Origin: an uncultured Actinomycetes bacterium
GTDB lineage: Bacteria > Actinomycetota > Actinomycetes > Streptosporangiales > Streptosporangiaceae
NCBI GenBank assembly: GCA_963814645.1
Contig: CAWFDX010000002.1
Span: 368,480 to 432,479, forward strand
DNA length: 64,000 nt
Direction: 5' to 3'
Each line of letters starts with the position of its first letter. Within the stretch, counting starts at the first letter, position 1. Below are positions 9,116 to 21,816 of the stretch, in pieces. A program made the translations under genes and the position numbers. The notes under the pieces are model-generated. The model was given only the letters and a program-made list of their open reading frames with translations, made no database searches and was not told where the DNA came from.

Positions 9116-9901
9116 ATGGAGCAGGCGATCCATGATCGCCAGGCTGCGGGGAATGGCCTGGCCGCGCGGGGCATGCCGATGGTGCTGATGTATCACTCGG
9201 TGCAGCCGTACACCGACGATCCGTATCTGGTGACGGTGGGGCCACCCCGCTTCGCGCAGCAGATGCGGTGGCTGGGCCGCCGCGGGCTGCGCGGGGTGTC
9301 GATAGCCGAGCTGCTCGCCGCGCGGGCGGCGGGCGCCGGCAAGGGGCTGGTCGGGCTGACCTTCGACGATGGTTACGCCGATTTCGCCGAGTACGCGCTG
9401 CCGGTGCTGCGGCGCTATGGCTTCAGTGCGACCGTGTTCGTGATCGCTGGCCGGCTGGGCGGGGACAACGTCTGGGACCCGGCCGGCCCGCGCAAACCGT
9501 TGCTGGACGCGGCCCAGGTCAGGCGGCTGGCTGCGGGTGGCGTGGAGATCGGCTCGCACGGGATGCAGCACGTCTCACTGCCCACGGCACACGGCGCGCT
9601 GGCCGCGGAGACCGGGGGCAGTCGGCGCATCCTGCAGGACATCACCGGCCAGCCGGCCAGCGGGTTCTGCTACCCGTACGGCCATCTGGACGCCGGGGTG
9701 GTCACCGCGGTCCGCGCCGCGGGTTACGACTACGGCTGCGCGATCTGGCCGTCGGAGTACGCCGGGCGGCACGCGCTGCCCCGGACCTACATCGGTGACG
9801 CCGACACCTCGCCCCGGCTCTGGGGCAAGGCGGTGCGGCACTGGCTGGCCTGGGCCCACCGCGGCCCGCACGGCGCGCGATCGCGGCCGCGGCCGGCCTG
9901 A
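9116..9901 (+). CDS. Polysaccharide deacetylase family protein
   Basis: NodB-type motifs LTFDDGY and HGMQH are present. RBS gggggag lies upstream. An alternative start is at 9173. Confidence 0.85.
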   Translation: MEQAIHDRQAAGNGLAARGMPMVLMYHSVQPYTDDPYLVTVGPPRFAQQMRWLGRRGLRGVSIAELLAARAAGAGKGLVGLTFDDGYADFAEYALPVLRRYGFSATVFVIAGRLGGDNVWDPAGPRKPLLDAAQVRRLAAGGVEIGSHGMQHVSLPTAHGALAAETGGSRRILQDITGQPASGFCYPYGHLDAGVVTAVRAAGYDYGCAIWPSEYAGRHALPRTYIGDADTSPRLWGKAVRHWLAWAHRGPHGARSRPRPA

Positions 9902-10040
9902 ATATCCCGCACTCTGCGTAGGGCCCCTACCCCTGTTGAGTGACCCGGAGGAGTAAGTCGGCTGGCACACTCGGAATTCGAGAACGAACTCGCTAGGCGC
10001 ATCGGGGGATTTCGCCTAGCCCGAGGCGCAAGGGGGCATA

Positions 10041-11417
10041 GTGGCCGAGCACCGGCTTTCGCTAGCGGTCAACGGGCGGGAAAGCCTGCTCCACCAGAAG
10101 CTGATCACTTACCGTGCCGCGGACCGCGCGGGAGCCGGCCAGGAAAATGCCCGCCAGGGGAGCGCGGGCTCGGTCGCTATTGTCGGGCTGGGGTACGTCG
10201 GGCTGCCCACCGCGGTGGCGCTGCATGGCGCGGCCCGGCGGATCGTCGGTATTGACTTCAATGAGCAGCGGCTGCGGGACATCCTGGCCCGCCGCGCCGA
10301 TCTCGGCGGCCCGGACCGGGAGCGGCTGGCCGCGGCGCTGGCCGAGGGCAGCCTGGAACTGACCACCGACCCGGCCGTGGCCAAGGCGGCCGACAGCGTC
10401 ATCATCTGCGTGCCGACCCCGGTGGACGGCCAGCAGTCCCCGGACCTGTCCGCGCTGCGCGCGGCCTGCGGCACCGTGGTGCAGCACACCCGGCCCGGCC
10501 AGCTCATCGTGCTCACCTCGACCAGCTACGTAGGCACCACCCGGGAGCTGCTGACCGAGCCGCTGGCCGCCCGCGGGCTGGTGGCCGGGGCCGACGTGCA
10601 CGTGGCATTCAGCCCGGAGCGGATCGACCCGGGCAACCCGGATCACGTGCAGCGGGAGACGCCGCGGGTGCTCGGCGGCGCCACGCCGGGCTGCACCAGC
10701 CGGGCCGCCGAGCTGATCGGCCGGCTGACCGACGCGGTGTACCTGGTCAGCTCGACCGACGCCGCGGAGGCCACCAAGCTGTACGAGAACATCTTCCGCG
10801 CCGTGTCGCTGGCGCTGGCCAACGAGTTCGCCGACGCGTGCGGCGCGCTCAGCCTGGACCCGATCGAGGTAACCCTGGCCGCCAGCACCAAGCCGTACGG
10901 CTTCCTGGGCGCGTTCCCCGGTCCCGGCGTGGGCGGGCACTGCATCCCGTGCGACCCGCACTACCTGCTCTGGCAGCTGAATGCGGCCGACCAGAGCGCC
11001 CCGCTGATCGAGCAGGCGATGAAGTCGATCGCGCTGCGCCCGGAACGGGTGATCCAGCGGGCCGCCGAGGTGCTGGCGGCGGACGGGCGCCCGCTGGCTG
11101 GCGCCCGGGTCATCGTGCTCGGCGCGAGCTACAAGGCCGGCGTCCGGGACCTGCGCGAATCACCGGCCCTGGCCATCATGGCCGGGCTGCTCCGGGAGGG
11201 CGCCTCGGTCGGTTATTACGACCCGCTGCTGCCGGTCATCGAGCTGCCCGGCGGCCAGGTGCTGGCCAGCGAGGCGGCGCCGGCCGGGGCCGACTGGGAC
11301 CTGGCGGTGGCGCACACGCTGCACCCTCGGACGGACTACTCCTGGGCATACAGCTGCCCGCGCGTGCTGGACGGCACATATCAGTTCTTTGGTCCGGCCC
11401 ACCGTGCGGTGGTGTGA
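10041..11417 (+). CDS. Nucleotide-sugar (UDP-glucose/GDP-mannose family) dehydrogenase
   Basis: Rossmann motif VAIVGLGYVGLP and catalytic-Cys region GVGGHCIPCDP are present. The C-terminal UDP-binding domain shows VLGASYKAGVRDLRESPA. Confidence 0.85.
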   Translation: MAEHRLSLAVNGRESLLHQKLITYRAADRAGAGQENARQGSAGSVAIVGLGYVGLPTAVALHGAARRIVGIDFNEQRLRDILARRADLGGPDRERLAAALAEGSLELTTDPAVAKAADSVIICVPTPVDGQQSPDLSALRAACGTVVQHTRPGQLIVLTSTSYVGTTRELLTEPLAARGLVAGADVHVAFSPERIDPGNPDHVQRETPRVLGGATPGCTSRAAELIGRLTDAVYLVSSTDAAEATKLYENIFRAVSLALANEFADACGALSLDPIEVTLAASTKPYGFLGAFPGPGVGGHCIPCDPHYLLWQLNAADQSAPLIEQAMKSIALRPERVIQRAAEVLAADGRPLAGARVIVLGASYKAGVRDLRESPALAIMAGLLREGASVGYYDPLLPVIELPGGQVLASEAAPAGADWDLAVAHTLHPRTDYSWAYSCPRVLDGTYQFFGPAHRAVV

Positions 11418-11424
11418 GGCAGCC

Positions 11425-12777
11425 ATGCTCGAGGAGCTGCGCGCGGCCGACGTCACCACCCCGGCGGTGGTGCTCAAGCTGGACCCGAACGTGCTGCACC
11501 ACGGCGGGCTCGGGGTGATCCGCAGCCTGGGCCGGCTCGGCGTGCCGGTGTACGGGGTGCACGAGGGCCGGTGGGCGCCCGCGGCCAGCTCCCGTTACCT
11601 GGCCGGCCGGGTGTTCTGGCAGCCGCCGCCGGACGACGTGGACCGGATCACCGCCGGGCTGCTCGGCCTGGCCGGCCGGATCGGCCGCCCCGCGGTGCTC
11701 CTGCCCACCGACGATGCGGGCGCGATCTTCCTGGCCGAGCACGGCGGGCCGCTGCGGGACAGGTTCCTGTTCGCCGACCCGCCCGCGGAGCTGCCCCGCC
11801 AGGTGGCGGGCAAGTACTCACTGTTCCAGCTGTGCCGGGACCTGGGCGTGCCCAGCCCGCGGGCCACGATGGCCTGGTCGGCCGGGGAGGCCGCGGACTT
11901 CGCGGCCACGGCGGGCTTCCCGGTCATCGGCAAGCTGACCACCCCGTGGCGGGCGGCCGGGTGCCACGACGGGCCGCCGCTGCGCAGCACCACGATCATC
12001 CGCGACCGGGCCGAGCTGGCCGAGGCCTGGCTGCGCTGCACCGAGGCCGGGCTCGGCCTGATGCTCCAGGAGTACCTGCCCGGCGGCCCCGGCCAGGACT
12101 GGTTCTTCCACGGCTACTGCGACACGGCGGGGCGCTGCCAGCCCGCGTTCACCGGGGTCAAGGACCGGTCCTACCCGGCGTATGCCGGGCTGACCAGCCT
12201 GGGCCACGCGGCGCCCAACACCGAGCTGCGCGACCAGCTCACCGGGCTGCTCGCCGCGCTCGGCTTCCGCGGCATCGTCAACCTCGACCTGCGGTTCGAC
12301 CCGCGGGACGGGCGGTACAAGCTGCTCGACTTCAACCCGCGGCTGGGCGCGCAGTTCCGGCTGTTCGAGGACACCGCGGGGGTGGACGTGGCCCGGGCCG
12401 CCTACCTCGACCTGACCGGCCAGCCGATGGCCGGGCGGGCCATGGTGGCGGGCCGCCGGTTCCTGGTGGAGAACTACGACCCGCTGGGCGCGGCCGGCTA
12501 CTGGCGGGCCGGCCAGCTGCGGCTGACCTCGTGGGCGGCCTCGCTGCGCCGGGTGGACGAGCTGGCCTGGTTCGCCCGGGATGACCTGCGGCCATTCGGC
12601 CTGATGTGCCTGCGAATGGGCTGGCGGGCGGTCAGCCGGCCATGGACCCGGGGCTCGCCCGCGCAGCCACGCGCCGCGGGCGAGCCTCGCTATCGGCCCG
12701 GTCGCGGCCCGGCCCCAGCCGCCGCGCATGAGCACCGACCTGACGGCAGGTTTCTTCACGTGGGGGGTAAGGCATGA
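11425..12777 (+). CDS. ATP-grasp domain protein (carboxylate-amine ligase type)
   Basis: Pre-ATP-grasp N-terminus (VVLKLDPNVLHHGGLGVIRSLGRLGVPVYGV) and ATP-grasp core (GFPVIGKL..., MLQEYLPG, NLDLRFDPRDGRYKLLDFNPR). ATG at 11425 is chosen within ORF 11389. Confidence 0.8.
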   Translation: MLEELRAADVTTPAVVLKLDPNVLHHGGLGVIRSLGRLGVPVYGVHEGRWAPAASSRYLAGRVFWQPPPDDVDRITAGLLGLAGRIGRPAVLLPTDDAGAIFLAEHGGPLRDRFLFADPPAELPRQVAGKYSLFQLCRDLGVPSPRATMAWSAGEAADFAATAGFPVIGKLTTPWRAAGCHDGPPLRSTTIIRDRAELAEAWLRCTEAGLGLMLQEYLPGGPGQDWFFHGYCDTAGRCQPAFTGVKDRSYPAYAGLTSLGHAAPNTELRDQLTGLLAALGFRGIVNLDLRFDPRDGRYKLLDFNPRLGAQFRLFEDTAGVDVARAAYLDLTGQPMAGRAMVAGRRFLVENYDPLGAAGYWRAGQLRLTSWAASLRRVDELAWFARDDLRPFGLMCLRMGWRAVSRPWTRGSPAQPRAAGEPRYRPGRGPAPAAAHEHRPDGRFLHVGGKA

Positions 12778-14006
12778 CCGGTAGCACAGACGTAGCCATC
12801 GTGGGGGCGGGGCCGTATGGGCTGTCCGTCGCGGCACACCTGCGCCGCTCCGGGCTGAGTGTCCGGCAGTTCGGGCTGCCGATGCACCTGTGGCGGGCGA
12901 ACATGCCACGCGGCATGTACCTCAAGTCGCAGGGCTTCGCGTCCAACCTGTCCGACCCGGACGCCGCGTTCACGCTGAGCGCGTTCTGCCGGTCATCCGG
13001 CCGCCCGTATGCCGACTACGGCCTGCCGGTGCCGCTGGACACGTTCGTCGCCTACGGCGCGTGGTTCCAGCAGGCGGCCGGGCTGGAGGTGACCGAGGTC
13101 ATGGTCACCAGCCTGGCCGCCGCGGCGGGCGGCTACCAGCTCAGCCTGGCCGACGGGGGCACGGTGACCGCCCGCCAGGTGGTGCTGGCCATCGGCGTGG
13201 AGCACTTCGCCTACCTGCCCGCCGAGCTGGCCGGGCTGCCCGCCGCGGCGTGCACGCACAGCTCGGCGCACAACGACCTGGCCACGTTCCGCGGCCAGCG
13301 GGTGCTGGTCGTCGGGGCCGGCCAGTCGGCGCTGGAATCGGCCGCGCTGCTGCACGAGAGCGGAGCCGACGTGCGGATGGTGATGCGCAAGCAGCAGGTG
13401 GTGTGGAATGGCGCCCCGCTGGCCCTGGACCGGCCGCTGCTGCAGCGGCTGCGGGAACCGGAGGCCGGGCTCGGCTCCGGCTGGGGCACCTGGTTCTACT
13501 CCCGGCAGCCAGCCATGTTCCGGCACCTGCCCGAGTCCACCCGGATCTACCGGGCCCGGACCGCGCTCGGCCCGGCCGGGGCCAGCTGGCTGCGCGGCCG
13601 GGTGGAGGGTGAGTTCCCGATCCTGGCCGGCCACTCGCTGGCCGGGGCGGCTAGCGGGCCGGACGGGGTCCGGCTGGCCGTCACCGACAGCGCCGGGCAG
13701 CGCACCGAGCTGGCCGCCGACCACATCATCGCGGCCACCGGCTACCGGCCGGACCTGAGCCGGCTGTCCGTCCTCGGCCCCGAGCTGCGGGCCGGGCTGC
13801 GCACGGTGGCCCGCACCCCGGCGCTGGACCGCGACTACCAGACCAGCGCGCCCGGGCTGTACGTGGTCGGCCCGGGTGTCGCGCCGACGTTCGGACCGGT
13901 GATGCGGTTCGTGTATGGCACGGATCACGCGGCGCGGACCGTGGCGCGGCGGGTCTCCGCCGCGGCCGGCCAGCGCGCCGACCTGACAGTGGGGGCGCCG
14001 CAGTGA
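12774..14006 (+). CDS. Two-dinucleotide-site flavoprotein (class B monooxygenase / K_oxygenase-like)
   Basis: GAGPYG (FAD) at the N-terminus and a second VVGAGQSA (NADPH) site. ATGA overlap with the ATP-grasp stop. Confidence 0.7.
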   Translation: MTGSTDVAIVGAGPYGLSVAAHLRRSGLSVRQFGLPMHLWRANMPRGMYLKSQGFASNLSDPDAAFTLSAFCRSSGRPYADYGLPVPLDTFVAYGAWFQQAAGLEVTEVMVTSLAAAAGGYQLSLADGGTVTARQVVLAIGVEHFAYLPAELAGLPAAACTHSSAHNDLATFRGQRVLVVGAGQSALESAALLHESGADVRMVMRKQQVVWNGAPLALDRPLLQRLREPEAGLGSGWGTWFYSRQPAMFRHLPESTRIYRARTALGPAGASWLRGRVEGEFPILAGHSLAGAASGPDGVRLAVTDSAGQRTELAADHIIAATGYRPDLSRLSVLGPELRAGLRTVARTPALDRDYQTSAPGLYVVGPGVAPTFGPVMRFVYGTDHAARTVARRVSAAAGQRADLTVGAPQ

Positions 14007-15472
14007 GCAGGACACCGCAGCTGGCCGGGCGCCGGCCGGCCAGGACCACCCCGGCGGACGGCCCGGACATGGGCCAGCCGGGCCCGGACGGCCCGGCCCC
14101 GGGCCCCGACCAGGGCCGCCCGGGGCCGGGCCGCCCGGAGATGAACCACGGAGCGGGACGGGATGGCGGCGCGCGGTTGGCCGCGGCCGGCCTGCCGCTG
14201 GCCGACCTGCTGACGCTGGCCGCCGTAGCTGGCGGCGGGCTGCTGCTCAGCGGGCTGCCCGGCTGGCTGCTGGCCGGCTACGCGGCGGGTGTGTTCGCCG
14301 GGCTGTATGTGCTGGGACTGCACCGGCTGCGGATCTGCCTGCGGGTGGCCGACCAGGCCGGCCGCATTACGGTCGCGGCGGCCCTGCCCGGGTTGCTGGT
14401 ACTGCCCTGGGCGGCCGATCCGGTCCAGCTGCTCCAGCTGATCGCGGTCACCGCGGTGGCGCTGATCGCGGTCCGCACGGCCGGCGCCGCCGCGCTGCGC
14501 GCGGCACACCGCCGTGGCCGGCTGACCGAGCGGGCCGTGCTGGCCGGAGCGGGCCCGGCCAGCGAGCAACTGGCCCGGCTGCTGCGTGAGCATCCCGAGC
14601 TGGGGCTGCGGGCCACCAGCTGCGCCTCGGTGGCGGACCTGGCCGGGCTGGCCGGGCGGCACCGGGCCAGCCGGGTCATCGTGGCCGGCCTGGACGGCGA
14701 CCAGCCCGCCGCGGCCGCGGCGCTGCGCGCCTGCCGTCAGCTCGGCGCGGACGTGTGCGTGCTGCCCCGGCTCAGCGAGCTGGGCATGGCCGTGCCGGCC
14801 GGCTGCCTGGACGAGGTGTGGGGGGTGCCGCTGATCCCGTTGCGGCGGGCCGGCCGGCTCAGCCCCGGCCGGGTGGCCAAGCGGGCGGTGGATGTCGGGG
14901 CCGCGCTGGCCGCGCTGGCCATCACCGGGCCGGTGCTCGCGGCGGCCGCAGTGGTGGTGCGTCTCCGGCTGCCCCGCCCGGTGCTGTTCCGCCAGGTCCG
15001 CGTCGTGGGCGGCGGAAAGCTGGCCGAGATCGTCAAGCTGCGCACGCTGGGCCAGCACGGCGACCCGGACACCGCCTGGCGGGTGCCCGACGAGAAGTGC
15101 GGCCCGCTGGGCCGGTTCCTCCGCATTACCCACGTCGACGAGCTGCCGCAACTGGTCAGTGTGCTGCGCGGGGACATGTCCCTGGTCGGCCCGCGCCCGG
15201 AGCGGCCGCACTACACCCGCCAGTTCAGCCAGGACATCCCGGGTTACGCGGCCCGGCAGCGGATGCCGGCCGGGATGACCGGCTGGGCCCAGGTGCACGG
15301 GCTGAACGGCGACACCTCGATCACCGACCGGGCCCGGTTCGACAACGCCTACATCGAGTACTGGTCGTTCTGGCTCGATCTGGTGATCCTGGCCCGCACC
15401 GTGACCAGCGTGACGGCGGAAGCAGCAGGCGAGCTGCGTGACCGGAGTTCCCACCGAGGAGGCCGAGTATGA
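14003..15472 (+). CDS. Polyprenyl glycosylphosphotransferase (bacterial sugar transferase, priming enzyme)
   Basis: C-terminal catalytic domain DELPQLVSVLRGDMSLVGPRPERP...GMTGWAQV follows N-terminal TM segments. GTGA overlap with the upstream stop. Confidence 0.85.
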   Translation: MSRTPQLAGRRPARTTPADGPDMGQPGPDGPAPGPDQGRPGPGRPEMNHGAGRDGGARLAAAGLPLADLLTLAAVAGGGLLLSGLPGWLLAGYAAGVFAGLYVLGLHRLRICLRVADQAGRITVAAALPGLLVLPWAADPVQLLQLIAVTAVALIAVRTAGAAALRAAHRRGRLTERAVLAGAGPASEQLARLLREHPELGLRATSCASVADLAGLAGRHRASRVIVAGLDGDQPAAAAALRACRQLGADVCVLPRLSELGMAVPAGCLDEVWGVPLIPLRRAGRLSPGRVAKRAVDVGAALAALAITGPVLAAAAVVVRLRLPRPVLFRQVRVVGGGKLAEIVKLRTLGQHGDPDTAWRVPDEKCGPLGRFLRITHVDELPQLVSVLRGDMSLVGPRPERPHYTRQFSQDIPGYAARQRMPAGMTGWAQVHGLNGDTSITDRARFDNAYIEYWSFWLDLVILARTVTSVTAEAAGELRDRSSHRGGRV

Positions 15473-16614
15473 AGGTCCTGCATGTGATCACCGGCCTGGG
15501 GGTCGGCGGCGCGGAACACCAGCTCCGGTCGATCCTGCAGCACACCCGGCACGAGTCCGACGTGGTGACCCTGTACAACCCGGGGCCGGTCGCGGACATG
15601 ATCCGGGCCGATGGCGGGTCGGTGCGGGACCTCGGGATGACCAGCAACACGCAGATCTCCGCGCTGTTCCGGCTGCGCCGGCTGATCCGGGCCGGCCGCT
15701 ACGACGTGGTGCACGCCCACCTGTACCGGTCCCAGATCTACGGGCGGCCCGCGGCCTGGCTGGCCGCCACCCCGGTGATCCTGAGCACCGAGCACTCGAT
15801 CGGCGAGACGCACCTGGAGCGCAGGCCGATGACACCGGGTGTCCGGGCGCTGTACCTGGGCACCGAGTTCCTGTCCGACATCACGATCGCGGTGTCCCCG
15901 GCGGTCCGCGAGCGGCTGCTCAAGTGGGGGGTCCGGGACCGCCGGATGACCGTCATCGCGAACGGCGTGGACATGCAACGGGTCGCGTTCGACGAGCACG
16001 CCAGGGACCGGGTCCGGGCCGAGTTCGGCATCGGCGCGGACGTCTACCTGATCGGGGTGCTCGGCCGTCTCGACCCGAACAAGCAGTTCGACATGGTCAT
16101 CGAGGCGTCGGCGCCGCTGCTCGGCGACGACGTCAAGCTGCTCATCGTGGGCAAGGGCAACGAGCGGGACCACCTGGAGCAGGTCGCCCGCGACCGCGGC
16201 GTGGCCGGTCAGGTGATCTTCGCCGGGGAGCGGCACGACGTCGCCGACATGCTGTCCGCGATGGACCTGTTCGTGGCGTCCTCCAAGCAGGAGACGTTCG
16301 GCCTGTCCGTGCTGGAAGGGCTGGCCAACGGGCTGCCCGTGCTGTACACCGCCTGCCCGGCCCTGGACGGCCTGGCGGTGACCCGGGCCGGCCAGGTGCC
16401 GCAGGCCGCGGCCGGGATACGCGACGCCATGGCGGCCGAACTGGCGGCCGGCCAGCGGCCGCGGATCGCCGAGCCGGCGGTGGAGAAGGAGTACAGCATC
16501 GAGGCCGTCACCGCGCGGATTGACGACCTGTACGAGCACCTGGCCGCCCGCCGCCGGTGGCGGACCGTGCTCCGGGCCATGGGGCCGCGGGCGGGGGCGG
16601 GGGGATCGCGATGA
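15469..16614 (+). CDS. Glycosyltransferase family 4
   Basis: MKVLHVITGLGVGGAEH N-terminus and a GT-B C-terminal E-x7-E-like region (SKQETFGLSVLEGLANGLPV). ATGA overlap upstream. Confidence 0.85.
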   Translation: MKVLHVITGLGVGGAEHQLRSILQHTRHESDVVTLYNPGPVADMIRADGGSVRDLGMTSNTQISALFRLRRLIRAGRYDVVHAHLYRSQIYGRPAAWLAATPVILSTEHSIGETHLERRPMTPGVRALYLGTEFLSDITIAVSPAVRERLLKWGVRDRRMTVIANGVDMQRVAFDEHARDRVRAEFGIGADVYLIGVLGRLDPNKQFDMVIEASAPLLGDDVKLLIVGKGNERDHLEQVARDRGVAGQVIFAGERHDVADMLSAMDLFVASSKQETFGLSVLEGLANGLPVLYTACPALDGLAVTRAGQVPQAAAGIRDAMAAELAAGQRPRIAEPAVEKEYSIEAVTARIDDLYEHLAARRRWRTVLRAMGPRAGAGGSR

Positions 16615-17588
16615 GGTGCTTCATCACCGGCGCGGCCGGCTTCATCGGCTCGCATCTGGCCGAGGAACTGGTGGCCGCCGGGCACGACGTGACCGGGCTC
16701 GACGACCTGAGCACCGGGCGGCTGGACAACCTGCGCCCGGTGGCCGGCCATCCCCGCTTCCGCCTCGTCGAAGGGTCGATCCTGGACGCGGCCACGGTCA
16801 CTAACCTGGCCAGCGGGGCGGACTGGGTGTTCCACCTGGCCGCCGCGGTGGGCGCGTTCGTCATCCGGGACCGGGCGCTGGACAGCCTGCGGACCAACAT
16901 CCACGGCACGGAGCACGTGGTGACCGCCGCGCAGGCCAGCGGGGCCCGGCTGCTGGTCGCATCCACCAGCGAGATCTACGGGAAGAACACCAAGATCGGG
17001 CTGCGCGAGGACGACGACCGGGTGATCGGCTCGCCGCTCAAGTCGCGGTGGAGCTACGCCGAGGCCAAGGCCATCGACGAGAGCCTGGTCAACTGTTACG
17101 TCCGGGAGCGTGGCCTGCGCGCGGTGATCGTCCGGTTCTTCAACACGGTCGGACCGCGGCAGACCGGCCGCTACGGGATGGTCATCCCGCGCTTCGTCCG
17201 GCAGGCCCTGGCCGGCCAGCCGCTGACCGTGTTCGGCACTGGCCAGCAGGTGCGCTGCTTCTGCGACGTGCGGGACGTGGTGTCCGCGCTGCCCCGGCTG
17301 ATCGCTGCCGACCGGGCCTGCGGCCGGGCGGTGAACGTGGGCAGCACCGAGCAGGTCAGCATCGAGGACCTGGCCCGCCGGGTGATCAGGCTGACCAGGT
17401 CGGCCAGCGGCATAACCCGGGCCTCCTACCTGGCGGCGTACGGCGCGGGCTACGAGGACCTGGAGCGCCGGGTGCCAGACTGCACCCTCGCCGCCGACCT
17501 GGTCGGGTTCGCCGCGACCCGGAACCTGGACGAGATCATCCAGGCGGTCGCGGCCGAGCAGTCATCCGCCCGGCAGGCGGCGGCGTAA
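16611..17588 (+). CDS. NAD-dependent epimerase/dehydratase (SDR family)
   Basis: GAAGFIGSH glycine-rich loop and Y-x3-K (YAEAK). ATG at 16611 overlaps the upstream TGA. Confidence 0.9.
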   Translation: MRCFITGAAGFIGSHLAEELVAAGHDVTGLDDLSTGRLDNLRPVAGHPRFRLVEGSILDAATVTNLASGADWVFHLAAAVGAFVIRDRALDSLRTNIHGTEHVVTAAQASGARLLVASTSEIYGKNTKIGLREDDDRVIGSPLKSRWSYAEAKAIDESLVNCYVRERGLRAVIVRFFNTVGPRQTGRYGMVIPRFVRQALAGQPLTVFGTGQQVRCFCDVRDVVSALPRLIAADRACGRAVNVGSTEQVSIEDLARRVIRLTRSASGITRASYLAAYGAGYEDLERRVPDCTLAADLVGFAATRNLDEIIQAVAAEQSSARQAAA

Positions 17589-17620
17589 TCAGGACGACAT
17601 CGGGCATGAGGGCTTAAAAC

Positions 17621-18724
17621 ATGCCGATCACGACAGGGACGGCAGACACGGGGATGGCGGGGGCAGCAAAAACGGCGTACGGCACTGACGGCCGCGCGCC
17701 AGACACGCTGCCCGGCCGGTCCCGCCATGCTGGGTCCCGCCATCCCATGGCCGGGCCCGCGTGGCTGGCCGCCGTGCTGGCCCACCGGGACGCGGTGACC
17801 GAGGTGTCGCCGTGGATGTACGGCCTGGCCGCGAACGGCCAGATCGAGACGCAGTACCCCACCGGGCAGGCGGCCGCGGTGGCCCGGGACATCGAGCGGC
17901 TGCGTGCGGCCGGCCTGCGGCTGGTGCCGTCCATCGCGAACATCACCGATGGCAAGTGGGCCTACCAGCCGGCAGGCCGGATGCTGCATTCACCAGCCCT
18001 GATGGCCCGGCAGGTAGCCGCCATCGTGGCCCTGGTGCAACGCCATGACTACGCCGGCGTTGATATTGATTATGAGAACCTGCACGCCGGGGACCGCCAG
18101 GCGTTCAGCACGTTCATCCGCGATCTGGCCGCCGCGCTGCACGCGCACGGCAAGCTGCTCTCGGTCGCGGTGTTCGCCAAAACCAGCAACGCGGGCACCG
18201 ACCCGCGCAACGTGGCCCAGGACTACGCGGCCATCGGCCGGGTCGCCGACCAGGTGCGGCTGATGGGCTACGACTACCACTGGGCCACCTCACCGCCAGG
18301 TCCGATCGCCCCGGTCGGCTGGATCCGGGCGGTGCTGCGCTACGCCAAGACGCAGATCCCGGCTAGCAAGATCATCCTTGGCATCCCGCTGTACGGCTAC
18401 GCCTGGTCCGGCGGGCACGGCACCGCGATCAGCTGGCTGCAGGCGCTCCGGCTGTCCCGGGAGTACCACGCGCCGCCGCGGTACAACGTGACCAGCCAGG
18501 CGCCGTGGTTCAGCTATACCGACCGGGCCGGCCACAAGCACACCGTGTGGTTCGAGAACGAGGCCAGCTCGCGGGCCAAGTTCGACCTGGCCCAGGGGGC
18601 CGGCATCGCCGGGGTCTACCTGTGGATGTATGGCTATGAGGACGCCGGCACCTGGCCGGCGCTGAGCCAGGTGCTGCCCACCTCCGGGCCGCACGCGCTG
18701 AGCACGGCGAAGGCGGTGCCGTGA
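17621..18724 (+). CDS. Glycoside hydrolase family 18-like protein
   Basis: GH18 catalytic signature D-x-D-x-E (YAGVDIDYEN) and MGYDYH are present. No N-terminal signal peptide or TM segment is visible. Confidence 0.7.
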   Translation: MPITTGTADTGMAGAAKTAYGTDGRAPDTLPGRSRHAGSRHPMAGPAWLAAVLAHRDAVTEVSPWMYGLAANGQIETQYPTGQAAAVARDIERLRAAGLRLVPSIANITDGKWAYQPAGRMLHSPALMARQVAAIVALVQRHDYAGVDIDYENLHAGDRQAFSTFIRDLAAALHAHGKLLSVAVFAKTSNAGTDPRNVAQDYAAIGRVADQVRLMGYDYHWATSPPGPIAPVGWIRAVLRYAKTQIPASKIILGIPLYGYAWSGGHGTAISWLQALRLSREYHAPPRYNVTSQAPWFSYTDRAGHKHTVWFENEASSRAKFDLAQGAGIAGVYLWMYGYEDAGTWPALSQVLPTSGPHALSTAKAVP

Positions 18725-19953
18725 TGCCGTGGTGGGCGCTGGCCGTGCTGATGCTCGGGGCCAACTTCGCGCTGTGGGGGGCGATTGGCCTGATCCGGCT
18801 GGGAGAGTCGGCGGTGGCCCGGTGGTCCGCGGCCCGCGCGCTGCGGGCCGCTCCGGCGCCGGCCCAGCTGACCGCGGCCAGTCCCGGAACGAAGGGCAAA
18901 CCTGGCGACCGGACGCCAGCCCGCCGGGCTAGACCTGCCCCGTCGCTGACCACCAGCGACGTGGCTGTGCTGATCCCGGCGCACAACGAGGCGCTGGTCA
19001 TCGCGGACAGCCTGGCCGCGATCATGGCCCTGGTGCCAGCCCGGAACGTGCACGTGGTGTCGGACGGGTCCACCGACGACACGGTGGCCATCGCCCGCCG
19101 GTCCGGCGCCCTGGTGATCTCCACCCAGGAGAACGTCGGCAAGGCCGGCGCGCTCGAGGAGGCCGTCGCCAGGTTCGGCCTGATCGACCGGTTCCCGGTG
19201 GTCATGCTGCTGGACGCGGACACCCGGGTGCTGCCGCACCTGGAGATGAACCCGCCCGGGCTGGTCATCGAGGACTTCAACATGACGTTCGAGGTGTACC
19301 AGAAGCGGCTGGGCAAGGTCGGCTTCACGCTGCGCGCGGTGGCGGTCACCCAGGACCCGGACAACCTGCACGACTACATCCGGCAGACCAAGCGGTGGGC
19401 GATCGGGCTGTGGCAGACCGTGAAGCGGCACCCGCCGCGGGCCAACCTCTTCACCGCCATGCTGGTCCTGCTGCTGCTCGAACTGATCACCTCCAGCGTG
19501 CTGTTCTTCCTGCTCTCGCTGGCGCTGCTGGTGCTGCTGGTCCCGGATCTGGCCGGCCAGGCGCTGTCCTGGCCCGCGTTCGGCGAGCTGCACTTGGCCG
19601 TGTCCACCCACCTCACGCTGACCGCGGTGCTGTTCGGCGTGGTGCTCACGGACTTCCTGATCACCTGCGCGGTGGCCGTGCTGGAGCGCCAGCCCCGGCT
19701 GCTGCTGCTCGCTGTCTTTTTCCCATTCATGCGCATGCTGGACGCCGCCATCTCGCTGTACTCGGTCTCGGCGGCCTGGTTGTCGGTGTCCAGCGGCCGC
19801 TGGAAGAGCCCTGCCCGCCGCCCGGTGGGCCGGGCCACCGCGGCAGCGCTCCCCGCCGCCGGCGTGCCGGCCAGCGGCGCCTACCACGCTGGGACCAGAA
19901 ATGAGCCGGGCACGCCGGCTCGGGTGGCGGAGGCTAGTCATGTATCTGGGTGA
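18721..19953 (+). CDS. Membrane-embedded glycosyltransferase family 2 (synthase-type)
   Basis: GT2 motifs VLIPAHNE, SDGSTDDT and LLDADT. One N-terminal and several C-terminal TM segments. The start (GTG 18721 / ATG 18724) overlaps the GH18-like stop. Confidence 0.8.
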   Translation: MMPWWALAVLMLGANFALWGAIGLIRLGESAVARWSAARALRAAPAPAQLTAASPGTKGKPGDRTPARRARPAPSLTTSDVAVLIPAHNEALVIADSLAAIMALVPARNVHVVSDGSTDDTVAIARRSGALVISTQENVGKAGALEEAVARFGLIDRFPVVMLLDADTRVLPHLEMNPPGLVIEDFNMTFEVYQKRLGKVGFTLRAVAVTQDPDNLHDYIRQTKRWAIGLWQTVKRHPPRANLFTAMLVLLLLELITSSVLFFLLSLALLVLLVPDLAGQALSWPAFGELHLAVSTHLTLTAVLFGVVLTDFLITCAVAVLERQPRLLLLAVFFPFMRMLDAAISLYSVSAAWLSVSSGRWKSPARRPVGRATAAALPAAGVPASGAYHAGTRNEPGTPARVAEASHVSG

Positions 19954-20662
19954 GGATGGGCCAGTGGCCACGGTGCACAGCGAGCTCATGGACCCGGTGC
20001 GGATCTTGCTCGTTGATGATCATCTGATGGTCACCGAAGCCCTGGCCTCGCGGCTGTCCGCCGCCATGGACCTGTGGGTGGCCGGCCGGTGCACCACCGC
20101 CGATCCGAACCTGCTGGACATCGTGCGCGGACTGCGCCCGGATGTCATCACGATCGAGGTGGAGCCGCTCGGCCCGGCCGCGGGCCAGGTCCTGCAGGGG
20201 CTGGTCGCGGCCCGCCCGGAGGCCAAGGTGGTCGTGCTCAGCGCGGACCACAACATCGGGCACGCGGTCGAGGCGGCCCGGGCCGGGGTAGCCGCCTGGG
20301 TGGCCAAGGAGCAGGGCGCCGCCGAGCTGGAGACTGTAGTCCGCGGAGTGTGCCAGGGCTACTCGTGGTTCCCGCCGGACATGCTCGGCGCGATCCTGCG
20401 CGAACTGCGCGCCGACGTGAGCCGGGCCCGCGAGCACGACGACCTGCTGGACGTGCTCAGCCCGCGGGAGCGGGACGTGCTGCTGTCCATGATGGACGGC
20501 AAACGAGGCCGGCAGATCGCCCAGGACCTGCTCATATCCACCGATACGGTGCGCACCCACACGCGGAACATCTTCGCCAAGCTGGACGTGCACAGCCGCC
20601 TGGAGGCGGTCCGGGTCGCCCGGGCGGCCGGCCTGCGGCGGCCTGAGGAGCAGGCCGAATGA
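19940..20662 (+). CDS. NarL/LuxR-family response regulator, atypical receiver (Glu at phospho-acceptor position)
   Basis: Receiver (ILLVDDH..., VVVLSADH, AWVAK) plus LuxR HTH (LSPRERDVL...IAQDLLISTDTVRTHTRNIFAKL). The start is either ATG 19940 or ATG 19988. The stop overlaps the next gene (ATGA). Confidence 0.8.
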   Translation: MYLGEDGPVATVHSELMDPVRILLVDDHLMVTEALASRLSAAMDLWVAGRCTTADPNLLDIVRGLRPDVITIEVEPLGPAAGQVLQGLVAARPEAKVVVLSADHNIGHAVEAARAGVAAWVAKEQGAAELETVVRGVCQGYSWFPPDMLGAILRELRADVSRAREHDDLLDVLSPRERDVLLSMMDGKRGRQIAQDLLISTDTVRTHTRNIFAKLDVHSRLEAVRVARAAGLRRPEEQAE

Positions 20663-21816
20663 ACAACGGCCGGCCGGTCCGGGTCGCCACGGTGATCACC
20701 AGGCTGGACGGCGGCGCGGGCCGGCACGCGCTGCGCGGCGTGCGGGCCATGGACCCGGCCGGCTATGCCATGACGATCATCACCGGCTGCGGCGAGCTGG
20801 TGGCCGAGGCCGAAGCGGCCGGCCTGGAGGTCATCGTGGAGCCGTCGCTGCGCGCGCCCATCGCGCCCGGCAGCGACCTGCGCGCGCTGGCCCGGCTGAC
20901 CGCGCTGCTGCGCCGCCGCGACTTCGACGTGGTGCACACGCACTGCGCCAAGGCGGGCGCGATCGGCCGGCTGGCCGCGCACCGGGCCCGGGTGCCCCGC
21001 CTGGTGCACACCTACCACGGCTTCCCGTTCCACGAGTTCCAGGGCGCCGTCCGCCGCCGCGCCTACATTGAGACCGAACGCCGGCTGGGCCGGGTAACCG
21101 ACGTCGCGCTGTGCGTCGGCACCGGGGTGGCGGTCGAGGCGGTCCGCCGCCGGCTGATCGCCCCGGAACGGGTGCGCACGATCGGGGTGGTCGCCGACGG
21201 CGCCGACCAGGCCACCGCGCGGCCGCCACCGGCCCCGGCCCGGCGCCGCCAGGCCCGGGCCGAACTGGGCCTGCCCGCGGACGCCACCGTGGTCGGCGCG
21301 GTCGGCCGGCTGACCTACCAGAAGGCACCGGAGGACTTCCTGGCCGCGCTGCGCGCCCTCGGCCGGCCCGGGGTGACCGGGGTCTGGGTCGGCGACGGGG
21401 AACTGGCCAGGCCGATGGCGGCCCGGGCGGCCGCCCGGCCGGGGAACAAGCTGGTGCTGGCCGGGCAGCGCAGCAACGTGCCCGACCTGCTGCCCGCGTT
21501 CGACGTGTTCGCGCTGCCCAGCCGCTACGAGGGGCTGCCCACCGCGGTGGTCGAGGCGATGGTGTGCGGCATCCCGGTGGTAGCGACCGCGGTCAACGCG
21601 GTCGGCGATGTGGTCATACCCGGCGAAACCGGGCTGCTTGTCCCGCCCGGCCGCCCGGAACTGCTGGCCGAGGCGGTCGGGTTCCTGCTCGACTCGCCCG
21701 ACGCGGCGGCCCGGATGGCGGCCACCGCGCGGGCCCGGCTCGGCACCCGGTTCGGCGAGCAGGCGCTGCGCGGTGCCCTGGTAGCGGCCTACTCCGGTGG
21801 GTATGCCGTTGCCTAG
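20659..21816 (+). CDS. Glycosyltransferase family 4
   Basis: VATVITRLDGGAG N-terminus and C-terminal PSRYEGLPTAVVEAMVCGIPVVAT (E-x7-E). Confidence 0.85.
   Translation: MNNGRPVRVATVITRLDGGAGRHALRGVRAMDPAGYAMTIITGCGELVAEAEAAGLEVIVEPSLRAPIAPGSDLRALARLTALLRRRDFDVVHTHCAKAGAIGRLAAHRARVPRLVHTYHGFPFHEFQGAVRRRAYIETERRLGRVTDVALCVGTGVAVEAVRRRLIAPERVRTIGVVADGADQATARPPPAPARRRQARAELGLPADATVVGAVGRLTYQKAPEDFLAALRALGRPGVTGVWVGDGELARPMAARAAARPGNKLVLAGQRSNVPDLLPAFDVFALPSRYEGLPTAVVEAMVCGIPVVATAVNAVGDVVIPGETGLLVPPGRPELLAEAVGFLLDSPDAAARMAATARARLGTRFGEQALRGALVAAYSGGYAVA

Follow-up and report, generated by a model that had tools for sequence, protein, structure and literature searches.

A conserved ATP-grasp ligase and flavoprotein pair in an actinobacterial surface-sugar gene cluster probably modifies an amino sugar, not a sugar acid

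The window analysed here, a 64,000-nucleotide stretch of DNA from a soil actinobacterium, carries a surface-sugar gene cluster in which three consecutive plus-strand ORFs (10041–11417, 11389/11425–12777 and 12774–14006; GC3 0.92–0.95) occupy positions 10041–14006, as a sequence-only reading had described. The first encodes a nucleotide-sugar 6-dehydrogenase of 458 aa belonging to the HexNAc-dehydrogenase clade (10041–11417), the second a COG3919-type ATP-grasp carboxylate-amine ligase of 450 aa (11425–12777; PF02786 and profile comparison), and the third a class-B-type two-dinucleotide flavoprotein of 410 aa with the N-hydroxylating-monooxygenase (NMO) fold (12774–14006). For the ligase the most probable start is ATG 11425, which is preceded by a GTGAGG ribosome-binding site and lies 8 nt past the dehydrogenase stop, so that the ligase gene abuts the dehydrogenase gene with no overlap. 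The two overlaps noted earlier are both in the sequence: the flavoprotein start overlaps the ligase stop in an ATGA (12774–12777), and the start of a polyprenyl-phosphate glycosyl-1-phosphate transferase, the priming transferase (14003–15472; PF02397, 166.7 bits; TIGR03025, 272 bits), overlaps the flavoprotein stop in a GTGA (14003–14006). All other genes of the cluster described here are also on the plus strand. Upstream lies a CE4 deacetylase of the NodB/PgaB/HfsH-like type (9116–9901, 261 aa; PF01522, 87.5 bits). Downstream of the priming transferase are a GT4 glycosyltransferase, GT4a (15469–16614), a UXS/ArnA-like extended SDR (16557–17588; probable start at ATG 16611, overlapping the GT4a stop), a GH18-like protein (17621–18724; PF00704, 108.5 bits) and a GT2 glycosyltransferase (18721–19953; PF00535, PF13641) that share an accessory sub-module with the dehydrogenase, a LuxR-type response regulator (19901–20662) and a second GT4 glycosyltransferase, GT4b (20659–21816). 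The regulator, inside the cluster, is its most conserved protein, 87–99% identical where the enzymes are 60–80% identical.

The flavoprotein gene directly follows the ligase gene in 80/80 related loci, and the 4-bp stop/start overlap between them is retained in 58 of 78; the arrangement is therefore not due to chance. A second complete copy of the cassette is present in the same genome (68% and 66% identity), and in a 401-genome sample of the phylum both proteins were found in 10 genomes and were adjacent in 10/10. The two are also found as a fusion in the opposite order, flavoprotein-to-ligase, on two contigs (P0144), and in a further context (G074) a divergent ATP-grasp protein likewise comes after a flavoprotein at 42% identity. 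The trio as a whole recurs outside this genome, deacetylase–dehydrogenase–ligase–flavoprotein–priming transferase–GT4 being the gene order met most often (28 of 59 full loci). The dehydrogenase accompanies the pair in 43/59.

The family calls made earlier for all three proteins agreed with Pfam/NCBIfam, with a 91-sequence profile and with Foldseek. For the flavoprotein, Pyr_redox_3 (77 bits) and Lys_Orn_oxgnase (54.4 bits, cutoff 21.3) were matched, and its AF2 model was of high confidence (pLDDT 92.8). When the model was compared with solved structures (Foldseek, VIA-align), PvdA, KtzI, DesB, a putrescine NMO and DfoA ranked first (Z 32.8–34.9), with PvdA and KtzI at Z 34.9 over 366–369 residues. 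With PvdA, KtzI, DesB, DfoA and SidA (PF13434) it shares the three-domain fold over its whole length (rmsd 2.6–3.0 Å, 360–369 aligned residues) and a set of motifs, namely the FAD GxGxxG (GAGPYG, 11–16), the NADPH GxGQSA (GAGQSA, 181–186), an Arg after the second Rossmann strand (R205) and ATGY (AATGY, 320–324). By its modelled structure, the flavoprotein is thus of the lysine/ornithine N-hydroxylase type. It differs from the NMOs in that identity is only 15–21% and its Pfam match extends over no more than the first two thirds of the profile, from the N-terminus. A quite unlikely alternative is that it is no oxygenase, but an NAD(P)H-dependent reductase or dehydrogenase of the TrxR/YpdA/FNR type with another redox role for the ligase or the pathway. 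The best solved relatives of its profile are indeed a TrxR-type FNR, 3ab1 (E 1.5e-15), and 2zbw, its top NCBIfam match is YpdA (66.8 bits), and in the structural comparison YpdA (Z 31.9) falls only about 3 units under the NMOs, YpdA and a type II FMO aligning at Z 31–32 over 309–343 residues. Yet the extra domain of the flavoprotein aligns only with NMOs (366–369 aligned residues, against 309), no redox-active cysteine is conserved among its orthologues (some have other residues in place of C72 and C160), the position of the YpdA FAD-motif Cys is a Tyr (GAGPYG), and the clusters are without a ferredoxin, thiol or P450 partner.

The ligase matched one Pfam ATP-grasp model marginally (PF02786, 20.9 bits, cutoff 19.8), and its ATP-grasp fold was confirmed by the 91-sequence profile, which matched the biotin carboxylase (BC) domain of pyruvate carboxylase (E 6.5e-12) as well as 2pn1 and DdlB. 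Conserved residues are K130, K170, Q215-E216, R290 and the Mg/ATP motif D302-x-N304-P-R306. In source records it is named 'D-aspartate ligase' or 'carboxylate--amine ligase'. Structure prediction, proposed as a check on both proteins, was informative for the flavoprotein but not for the ligase, whose model was poor (pLDDT 55.8). The ligase sequence gives no reading of its substrates.

What, then, does the pair act on? It had been proposed that the trio may attach an amine or amino acid to a uronic acid. In that model the dehydrogenase would supply a UDP-uronic acid, the ligase would activate the C6 carboxylate of this acid, either while it is nucleotide-linked or within the growing glycan, and join it in an amide to an amine or amino acid, and the flavoprotein would N-hydroxylate or oxidise that amine. 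Since the dehydrogenase directly precedes the ligase in the window, and does so in the commonest architecture, the substrate here may yet be a uronate; the dehydrogenase–ligase–flavoprotein order is retained in both copies of this genome, and an NMO fold would suit the second step. The precedent invoked for the first also exists: Cj1438C, from the Campylobacter jejuni HS:2 capsule, is an ATP-grasp enzyme amidating glucuronate (PMC11800379). Like the ligase here, this C-terminal amidoligase of Cj1438 is encoded in a polysaccharide cluster, and it forms a sugar amide (PMC11800379). However, it belongs to another ATP-grasp family (TupA-like), for which the ligase had no Pfam match, is fused to a GT2 and takes the carboxylate of GlcA, whereas the ligase here has a flavoprotein as its coupled partner and is encoded in many clusters that lack any dehydrogenase.

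The distribution of the dehydrogenase points the same way. Its TIGR03026 match is strong (344.6 bits; cutoff 189.8) and its best solved relatives are the UDP-ManNAcA dehydrogenase 4r16 (E 2.8e-46) and Cap5O (3ojl), but it scores below equivalog cutoffs, and its substrate is therefore not fixed. The pair stands without an orthologous dehydrogenase in about a quarter of the full loci (16 of 56–59; the variant-C clusters), in every genus g3 cluster examined, where the nearest dehydrogenase paralogue is 140 kb off and 35% identical, and in the G006, G074 and L094 contexts. The dehydrogenase co-varies, nearly without exception, with the UXS-like SDR: among 56 loci, both were present in 39, the dehydrogenase only in 1, the SDR only in 0 and neither in 16. 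The GH18-like protein was present in 37/40 loci with the dehydrogenase, and the GT2 also co-varies with it. Against solved structures, the SDR (motifs STSEIYG and YAEAK) matched human UXS1 (4lk3, 164 bits) better than PelX (132) or ArnA/WbgU (about 100). It is likely, from these matches, a UDP-uronic acid decarboxylase, which would destroy the very carboxylate that the ligase would need; as PelX is the second-best match, it could be a C4 epimerase instead, and in this it would differ from known pairs of a 6-dehydrogenase with a UXS-type SDR. Such pairs, to which the predicted activity here is similar, are UDP-Glc dehydrogenase with UXS and, in Bacillus cereus, UDP-GlcNAc 6-dehydrogenase with UDP-N-acetylxylosamine synthase (UXNAcS) (PMC5078965). 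Because the dehydrogenase is so often missing, co-varies with the SDR, and neighbours a ligase that is not TupA-like, the link between the pair and a uronic acid is weak, and we consider amidation of the neighbour's uronic acid unlikely.

Partners of the pair were counted over 59 full loci. The most constant was GT4a (57/59), followed by the priming transferase (55/59) and the deacetylase (52/59), the last of which is a steadier companion of the pair than the dehydrogenase. In 5 further loci a deacetylase orthologue lies 2–8 kb past the fetched DNA, whereas two full loci (L050, L091) have none within reach; five cluster types of other kinds (genus g3, G006, L094/95, G074 and L134) also combine a PF01522 deacetylase with the pair or with relatives of it. 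The deacetylase gave partial NCBIfam matches to PgaB, HfsH and IcaB, and at its N-terminus neither a signal peptide nor a TM segment was read. The priming transferase partially matches HfsE, and the weak best matches of GT4a are HexNAc-transferring GT4s (stp2, GlcNAc-PG synthase, BshA and MshA). The genus g3 cluster carries a FemX-type GNAT (PF13480), and in P0152 the ligase is fused to this domain.

In our view, held with modest confidence, an amino sugar is a more probable target of the pair than a sugar acid. In the best reading, the priming transferase and the BshA/MshA-like GT4 would build a lipid-linked precursor bearing an N-acetyl amino sugar, from which the cytoplasmic CE4 deacetylase would strip the acetyl group to leave a free primary sugar amine. 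The ATP-grasp ligase would then turn a carboxylic acid, with an amino acid as the likeliest candidate, into an acyl phosphate and join it to this amine, and the NADPH/FAD flavoprotein may oxygenate a primary amine of the incoming substituent or of the sugar. In a separate branch, the dehydrogenase would act with the UXS-like SDR to convert a UDP-hexose or UDP-HexNAc via the uronic acid to a UDP-pentose, e.g. UDP-XylNAc or UDP-Xyl, which would be used by the part of the cluster that holds the GT2, the GH18-like protein and GT4b.

A similar logic of unmasking and re-acylating a glycan amine on a lipid-linked precursor is found in Caulobacter holdfast synthesis, with the cytosolic deacetylase HfsH and the putative FemX-like acyltransferase HfsK (PMC5362036), to which the PF13480 GNAT of the g3 version corresponds; here, however, the proposed acylating enzyme is an ATP-grasp ligase using a free acid and ATP, and an NMO-like flavoprotein is added. 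The mycothiol and bacillithiol pathways likewise pass from HexNAc transfer by a GT4 to de-N-acetylation, after which an ATP-dependent ligase couples an amino acid to the amine. They differ in that the deacetylase here is CE4 and not LmbE, the ligase is ATP-grasp and not aaRS-like or BshC, and the acceptor, given the priming transferase, is lipid-linked; there is also no conserved Cys that would suggest a thiol role.

To our knowledge, all characterised NMOs act on small soluble, free amines and none on glycans, which counts against the amino-sugar reading. It would favour a free small molecule, with the flavoprotein N-hydroxylating a common amino acid or amine (ornithine, lysine or a diamine) and the ligase ligating or cyclising it, e.g. 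to a hydroxamate, the product being put on the glycan by another enzyme or acting alone. The ligase/flavoprotein fusion would fit two consecutive steps on one small substrate, and bonds of the N-O-acyl or hydroxamate type can be made by ATP-grasp enzymes, as in the case of DcsG from the D-cycloserine pathway. We nevertheless hold this very unlikely, as the flavoprotein, unlike the NMOs, is always paired with an ATP-grasp ligase within glycan and not siderophore clusters, translationally coupled to the priming transferase, and no siderophore transporter, NIS synthetase or NRPS gene was present in the examined neighbourhoods. Nor was there a RiPP context, in agreement with the earlier dismissal of a RiPP role.

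Our preferred explanation as a whole, to which we give a probability of about 0.4, treats the ligase and flavoprotein as a single conserved cassette, coupled in translation, that tailors the product of a lipid-linked pathway for cell-surface glycan. In this pathway an amino sugar would be deacetylated and then re-acylated and N-oxygenated by the pair, and the adjoining dehydrogenase would belong to a different sub-module. The ligase–flavoprotein pair is widely conserved and has never been characterised.

The genes for the dehydrogenase, the ATP-grasp ligase and the flavoprotein lie in an eleven-gene plus-strand operon (9116-21816; GC3 0.90-0.96, in a window with GC of 0.63-0.77). The sequence-only reading had described three consecutive genes with ATGA and GTGA overlaps, and this arrangement was confirmed in the window sequence. 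The nucleotide-sugar 6-dehydrogenase gene (10041-11417, + strand, 458 aa) is followed by the ligase gene (11425-12777, + strand, 450 aa), which most likely starts at ATG 11425, 8 nt past the dehydrogenase stop. The flavoprotein gene (12774-14006, + strand, 410 aa) overlaps the ligase gene by ATGA, and the priming transferase gene (14003-15472, + strand) overlaps the flavoprotein gene by GTGA. Downstream of a GT4 glycosyltransferase gene (15469-16614), the gene for a short-chain dehydrogenase/reductase (SDR; 16557-17588) has its probable start at ATG 16611, in an ATGA overlap with the GT4 stop. A LuxR-type response regulator (19901-20662) is by far the most conserved protein of the cluster, 87-99% identical where the enzymes are 60-80% identical. 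An IS630-type transposase (1773-2822; DDE_3 and HTH domains) lies ~6 kb upstream of the cluster, where the local GC is lower (0.63).

Species-representative genomes were scanned for relatives of the ligase, and the best 80 of at least 554 stretches encoding one were taken with 10-kb flanks. These came from Streptosporangiaceae and Trebonia MAGs, Pseudonocardiaceae (among them Saccharopolyspora spinosa, S. thermophila and S. kobensis) and one Acidimicrobiales MAG. The cluster is present in full in three cultured strains, S. spinosa NRRL 18395 (L090), S. thermophila JCM 10664 (L081) and S. kobensis ATCC 20501 (L082). The flavoprotein gene directly followed the ligase gene in all 80 of these best-matching loci; of the 78 that could be scored, 58 retain the 4-bp overlap and 68 have a spacing between -10 and +30 nt. 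Many of the loci are from MAGs, some with frameshifts. The loci are not phylogenetically independent, and the counts therefore describe conservation and are not statistical tests. With orthologues 60-95% identical and the stop/start overlap kept, the cassette is under strong constraint. A further complete copy of the cluster lies elsewhere in the genome from which the window comes, on a different contig (ligase 68%, flavoprotein 66% identical). This copy (~786000-797300 of contig C1; 3199-14221, minus strand, in locus L011) encodes dehydrogenase, ATP-grasp ligase, flavoprotein, priming transferase, GT4, SDR, GH18, GT2 and GT4 proteins, is 64-73% identical to the window copy, and is without the response regulator between GT2 and GT4.

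An even sample of 401 genomes from the Actinomycetota showed the same association; the tally takes in one unpublished genome (G120), and none of the claims depends on that genome by itself. The ligase was found in 21 genomes (E<=1e-30), the flavoprotein in 18 (E<=1e-25) and both in 10; in all 10 the two genes were neighbours, one pair being divergent and one in reverse order. Genome G074, scored as ligase-negative, encodes a 42%-identical flavoprotein followed by a more divergent ATP-grasp gene. Single polypeptides with the flavoprotein followed by the ligase also occur (P0144, on two contigs, and P0136). From gene order and fusion, the ligase and the flavoprotein clearly act together. An 838-aa fusion of the opposite order, P0139, was not counted as real, because the two genes overlap by 4 bp and a single indel in a long-read assembly would be enough to create it. 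The flavoprotein frame runs into the priming transferase in four MAG loci (L025, L047, L051 and L075; ORFs of 871-930 aa), as real fusions or long-read frameshifts; these were likewise set aside, as one indel could produce them. P0306 (623 aa), a flavoprotein joined to a dehydrogenase N-domain, may be either a real fusion or a frameshift error. In locus L094 (3606-7180), the fusion P0144 comes immediately after an unfused ATP-grasp paralogue of 431 aa, making two ligase domains per flavoprotein; an SDR, a deacetylase, a GH16 protein and a lactonase-like beta-propeller protein are encoded next to them.

The assignment of gene 2 as an ATP-grasp ligase was upheld. Its Pfam match is marginal (PF02786 only, 20.9 bits against a cutoff of 19.8, at E<=0.001), and no NCBIfam model matched. 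It has >2,500 homologues, automatically named 'predicted ATP-grasp carboligase', 'D-aspartate ligase' or 'carboxylate--amine ligase', and an exhaustive search returned 6,450 representatives at E<=0.001. A profile built from 91 homologues (34-92% identity) matched solved ATP-grasp structures, namely the pyruvate carboxylase BC domain (E 6.5e-12), 2pn1 (4.6e-10) and DdlB (3e-8), and also cyanophycin synthetase, RimK and LysX. Conserved across the 91 sequences are K130, K170, Q215 (invariant), E216, R290 and the motif D302-x-N304-P-R306 (R306 invariant); these would be the ATP/Mg2+ residues of the superfamily, among them two Lys, the hinge QE, an Arg and the D/E-x-N motif. Because of the matches to solved enzymes and the conserved nucleotide and Mg residues, the protein is predicted to be a competent ligase of the ATP-grasp type, from an uncharacterised subfamily. 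An AlphaFold2 model from a shallow 20-sequence alignment had a mean pLDDT of only 55.8 and returned nothing but ATP-grasp enzymes in Foldseek, confirming the superfamily and nothing finer; no subfamily or substrate was therefore drawn from it. The automatic JGI name is D-aspartate ligase (Aslfm, EC 6.3.1.12), and the surroundings are a glycan cluster, not a murein cluster.

We asked whether the adjoining dehydrogenase supplies the ligase's substrate, as had been proposed from the sequence: a uronic acid amidated by the ligase, with the amine oxidised by the flavoprotein. That gene 1 encodes a nucleotide-sugar 6-dehydrogenase held up, with PF03721, PF00984 and PF03720 all present and a TIGR03026 score of 344.6 bits (cutoff 189.8). 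Its closest solved relatives are the UDP-ManNAcA dehydrogenase 4r16 (E 2.8e-46) and Cap5O, and its closest clade is the WecC equivalog for UDP-N-acetyl-D-mannosamine dehydrogenase (NF008286; 201.2 bits, under the cutoff of 459); it lies below every equivalog cutoff, so its sugar is not fixed. Across 56 loci, dehydrogenase and SDR were both present in 39, the dehydrogenase alone in 1, the SDR alone in 0 and neither in 16, and GH18 and GT2 shared this pattern of co-variation. Among solved structures, the SDR comes closest to human UXS1, a UDP-glucuronate decarboxylase (164 bits), followed by PelX (132) and ArnA or WbgU (about 100), and it carries the motifs VASTSEIYG and YAEAK. Thr-Ser-Glu marks UXS/ArnA-type decarboxylases, and Thr-Asp-Glu marks 4,6-dehydratases. 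By its closest relative, its T-S-E motif and its pairing with a 6-dehydrogenase, the SDR is predicted to be a member of the decarboxylase family. UDP-xylose is known to be made by a 6-dehydrogenase together with a UXS-type enzyme. In Bacillus cereus the same pairing yields UDP-N-acetylxylosamine (PMC5078965). The two window proteins, whose co-variation between loci is nearly perfect, suggest a UDP-pentose branch (XylNAc or Xyl), not a uronic acid in the polymer. If the UXS-type pairing applies here, the uronic acid would be a mere intermediate whose carboxylate is lost.

No orthologous dehydrogenase was found with the ligase-flavoprotein pair in those 16 full loci (of 56), nor in genomes G006 and G074, genus g3 or locus L094, and the dehydrogenase, where present, co-varies with the UXS-like SDR. 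The dehydrogenase is accordingly read as part of a sub-module other than that of the pair. The only characterised glucuronate amidoligase, Cj1438C, belongs to the TupA-like ATP-grasp family (PMC11800379). No TupA-like model was matched (Pfam, E<=0.001) by the window ligase or by its relatives, which match PF15632, PF02655 and PF02786 instead; these Pfam matches and the published family description place the window ligase outside that family, unlike Cj1438C (PMC11800379). A uronate amide, which the adjacency of the dehydrogenase had favoured, is unlikely, and that pathway guess is probably wrong.

Partners of the pair were counted in the 59 loci, drawn from the best 80, that had at least 7 kb on both sides. 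The most constant were the GT4 (57/59), the priming transferase (55/59) and the CE4 deacetylase (52/59), followed by the dehydrogenase (43/59), the SDR (42/59), GH18 (41/59) and GT2 (40/59). The order deacetylase, dehydrogenase, ligase, flavoprotein, priming transferase, GT4 was seen in 28 of the 59; 13 loci had ligase, flavoprotein, priming transferase, deacetylase, GT4 without a dehydrogenase, and 5 had ligase, flavoprotein, dehydrogenase, priming transferase, GT4. In the latter five the deacetylase seemed absent, yet each had a 62-65% identical orthologue 2-8 kb beyond the flanks. Genomes with only the dehydrogenase-free cluster type had no orthologous dehydrogenase genome-wide, only paralogues of 35-41% identity. 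In genus g3 (genomes of 7-10 Mb), where the ligase was found in 9 of 10 sampled genomes, the cluster runs priming transferase, Wzy_C, deacetylase, GT4, FemX-type GNAT (PF13480), GH26, ligase and flavoprotein, with an LCP protein further on, and the nearest dehydrogenase paralogue lies 140 kb from it. A PF01522 deacetylase was present and the dehydrogenase absent in further contexts of the pair or its relatives: G006, which also holds a DegT aminotransferase and a small priming transferase, the fusion P0144, G074 and locus L134. Short contigs with distant unfused ligase relatives (P0148, P0137, P0152) gave no usable context. The window deacetylase (9116-9901) showed no signal peptide and no TM helix, and has partial matches of PgaB, HfsH, IcaB and NodB type. 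With glycan enzymes all around and no peptide precursor ORF, a RiPP or graspetide role was rejected; the sequence-only reading had also argued against a RiPP.

In L046 (7004-19060) and 12 similar loci, a dehydrogenase-free cluster stands directly after rplM-rpsI-glmM and contains a PelF-like GT4 whose N-domain is DUF3492, along with a protein of 513 aa without a Pfam match. In L134 (3025-10824), a ligase relative and a SAM methyltransferase form one fusion protein, and its neighbours are a CE4 deacetylase, a sulfotransferase, ComA and ComB (phosphosulfolactate synthase and phosphatase) and an amine-oxidase flavoprotein; the locus may specify a sulfolactate-type acyl decoration.

Across 20-48 orthologues, the flavoprotein shows little or no variation in three motifs: GAGPYG (11-16, FAD), GAGQSA (181-186, NADPH; followed by Arg205) and AATGY (320-324). 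By sequence profile, the best solved matches were TrxR-type reductases, over the NADPH domain only. PF13434, the family of N-hydroxylating monooxygenases (NMOs), scored 54.4 bits (cutoff 21.3) over profile positions 4-225 of 339 only, and PF13738 and PF07992 scored higher; sequence profiles alone are insufficient to place the protein. An AlphaFold2 model from a 48-sequence alignment was confident (pLDDT 92.8, pTM 0.90): Foldseek placed NMOs at the top over the whole length (TMq 0.70-0.74), and the model has their three-domain architecture including the small substrate domain, with 360-369 residues aligned. In VIA-align the highest scores were with PvdA (Z 34.9, 366 residues, rmsd 2.6 A), KtzI (Z 34.9, 369 residues), DesB (Z 34.0, 364 residues), an FbsI-type putrescine N-hydroxylase (Z 33.2, 365 residues) and DfoA (Z 32.8, 364-368 residues), followed by YpdA and type II FMOs (Z 31-32, 309-343 residues) and thioredoxin reductases (Z about 26, about 300 residues). 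Because NMOs rank top in both comparisons, the earlier suggestion of the lysine/ornithine N-hydroxylase group gains the backing of a predicted fold, at 15-21% identity.

A non-oxygenase role, towards which the reductase profile matches point, is unlikely. A disulfide reductase (YpdA-, TrxR- or mycothione-reductase-like), which if true would make the cluster a thiol-cofactor-like pathway, was rejected: the alignment of orthologues contained no conserved cysteine, and in the FAD motif a Tyr takes the place of the Cys of YpdA. A ferredoxin-NADP reductase was also rejected, the clusters being without a ferredoxin, P450 or radical-SAM partner.

Taken together, the pair may re-decorate an amino sugar. 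The priming transferase and GT4, whose weak best matches are HexNAc-transferring enzymes (stp2, GlcNAc-PG synthase, BshA, MshA), would assemble a lipid-linked precursor carrying an N-acetyl amino sugar. The cytoplasmic CE4 enzyme would free the sugar's amine, the ligase would activate an acid (probably an amino acid) with ATP and acylate the amine with it, and the NMO-like flavoprotein would N-oxygenate an amine on either the substituent or the sugar. To this model as a whole we assign a probability of about 0.4. Caulobacter HfsH and HfsK provide a published precedent of unmask-then-acylate logic (PMC5362036). A further parallel is the order GT4, deacetylase, ligase of mycothiol and bacillithiol synthesis. 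A free small-molecule product of the pair is an improbable alternative.

A tentative and rather doubtful extension is that the cassette puts an N-oxygenated nitrogen on the surface glycan, which would make it a metal-binding polysaccharide with hydroxamate or hydroxylamine groups. The target of the NMO-like enzyme would be either the deacetylase-freed amine or, where an Orn/Lys-type residue is attached, the amine of its side chain, and the ATP-grasp enzyme would acylate that amine. We came across no account of this kind of decoration on a bacterial glycan and, in a literature of which our coverage was incomplete, no paper or characterised example of an ATP-grasp and NMO-like pair in polysaccharide clusters.

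Each protein is in a known superfamily, and amide-ligase tailoring and deacetylation/re-acylation of glycans are already known processes. The charge of bacterial surface glycans, their adhesion and their recognition by phages or the immune system depend on amide-type and N-acyl decorations; to our knowledge, the enzymes installing non-acetyl groups on such glycans are mostly unknown. The adjacency of the dehydrogenase does not mean that it supplies the ligase's substrate, and the cluster splits into two separately testable modules. Streptosporangiales-type MAGs from soil and peat carry the cassette in abundance, and among cultured bacteria it occurs in Saccharopolyspora, S. spinosa included. 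Its flavoprotein would be the first of N-hydroxylase fold assigned to glycan tailoring.
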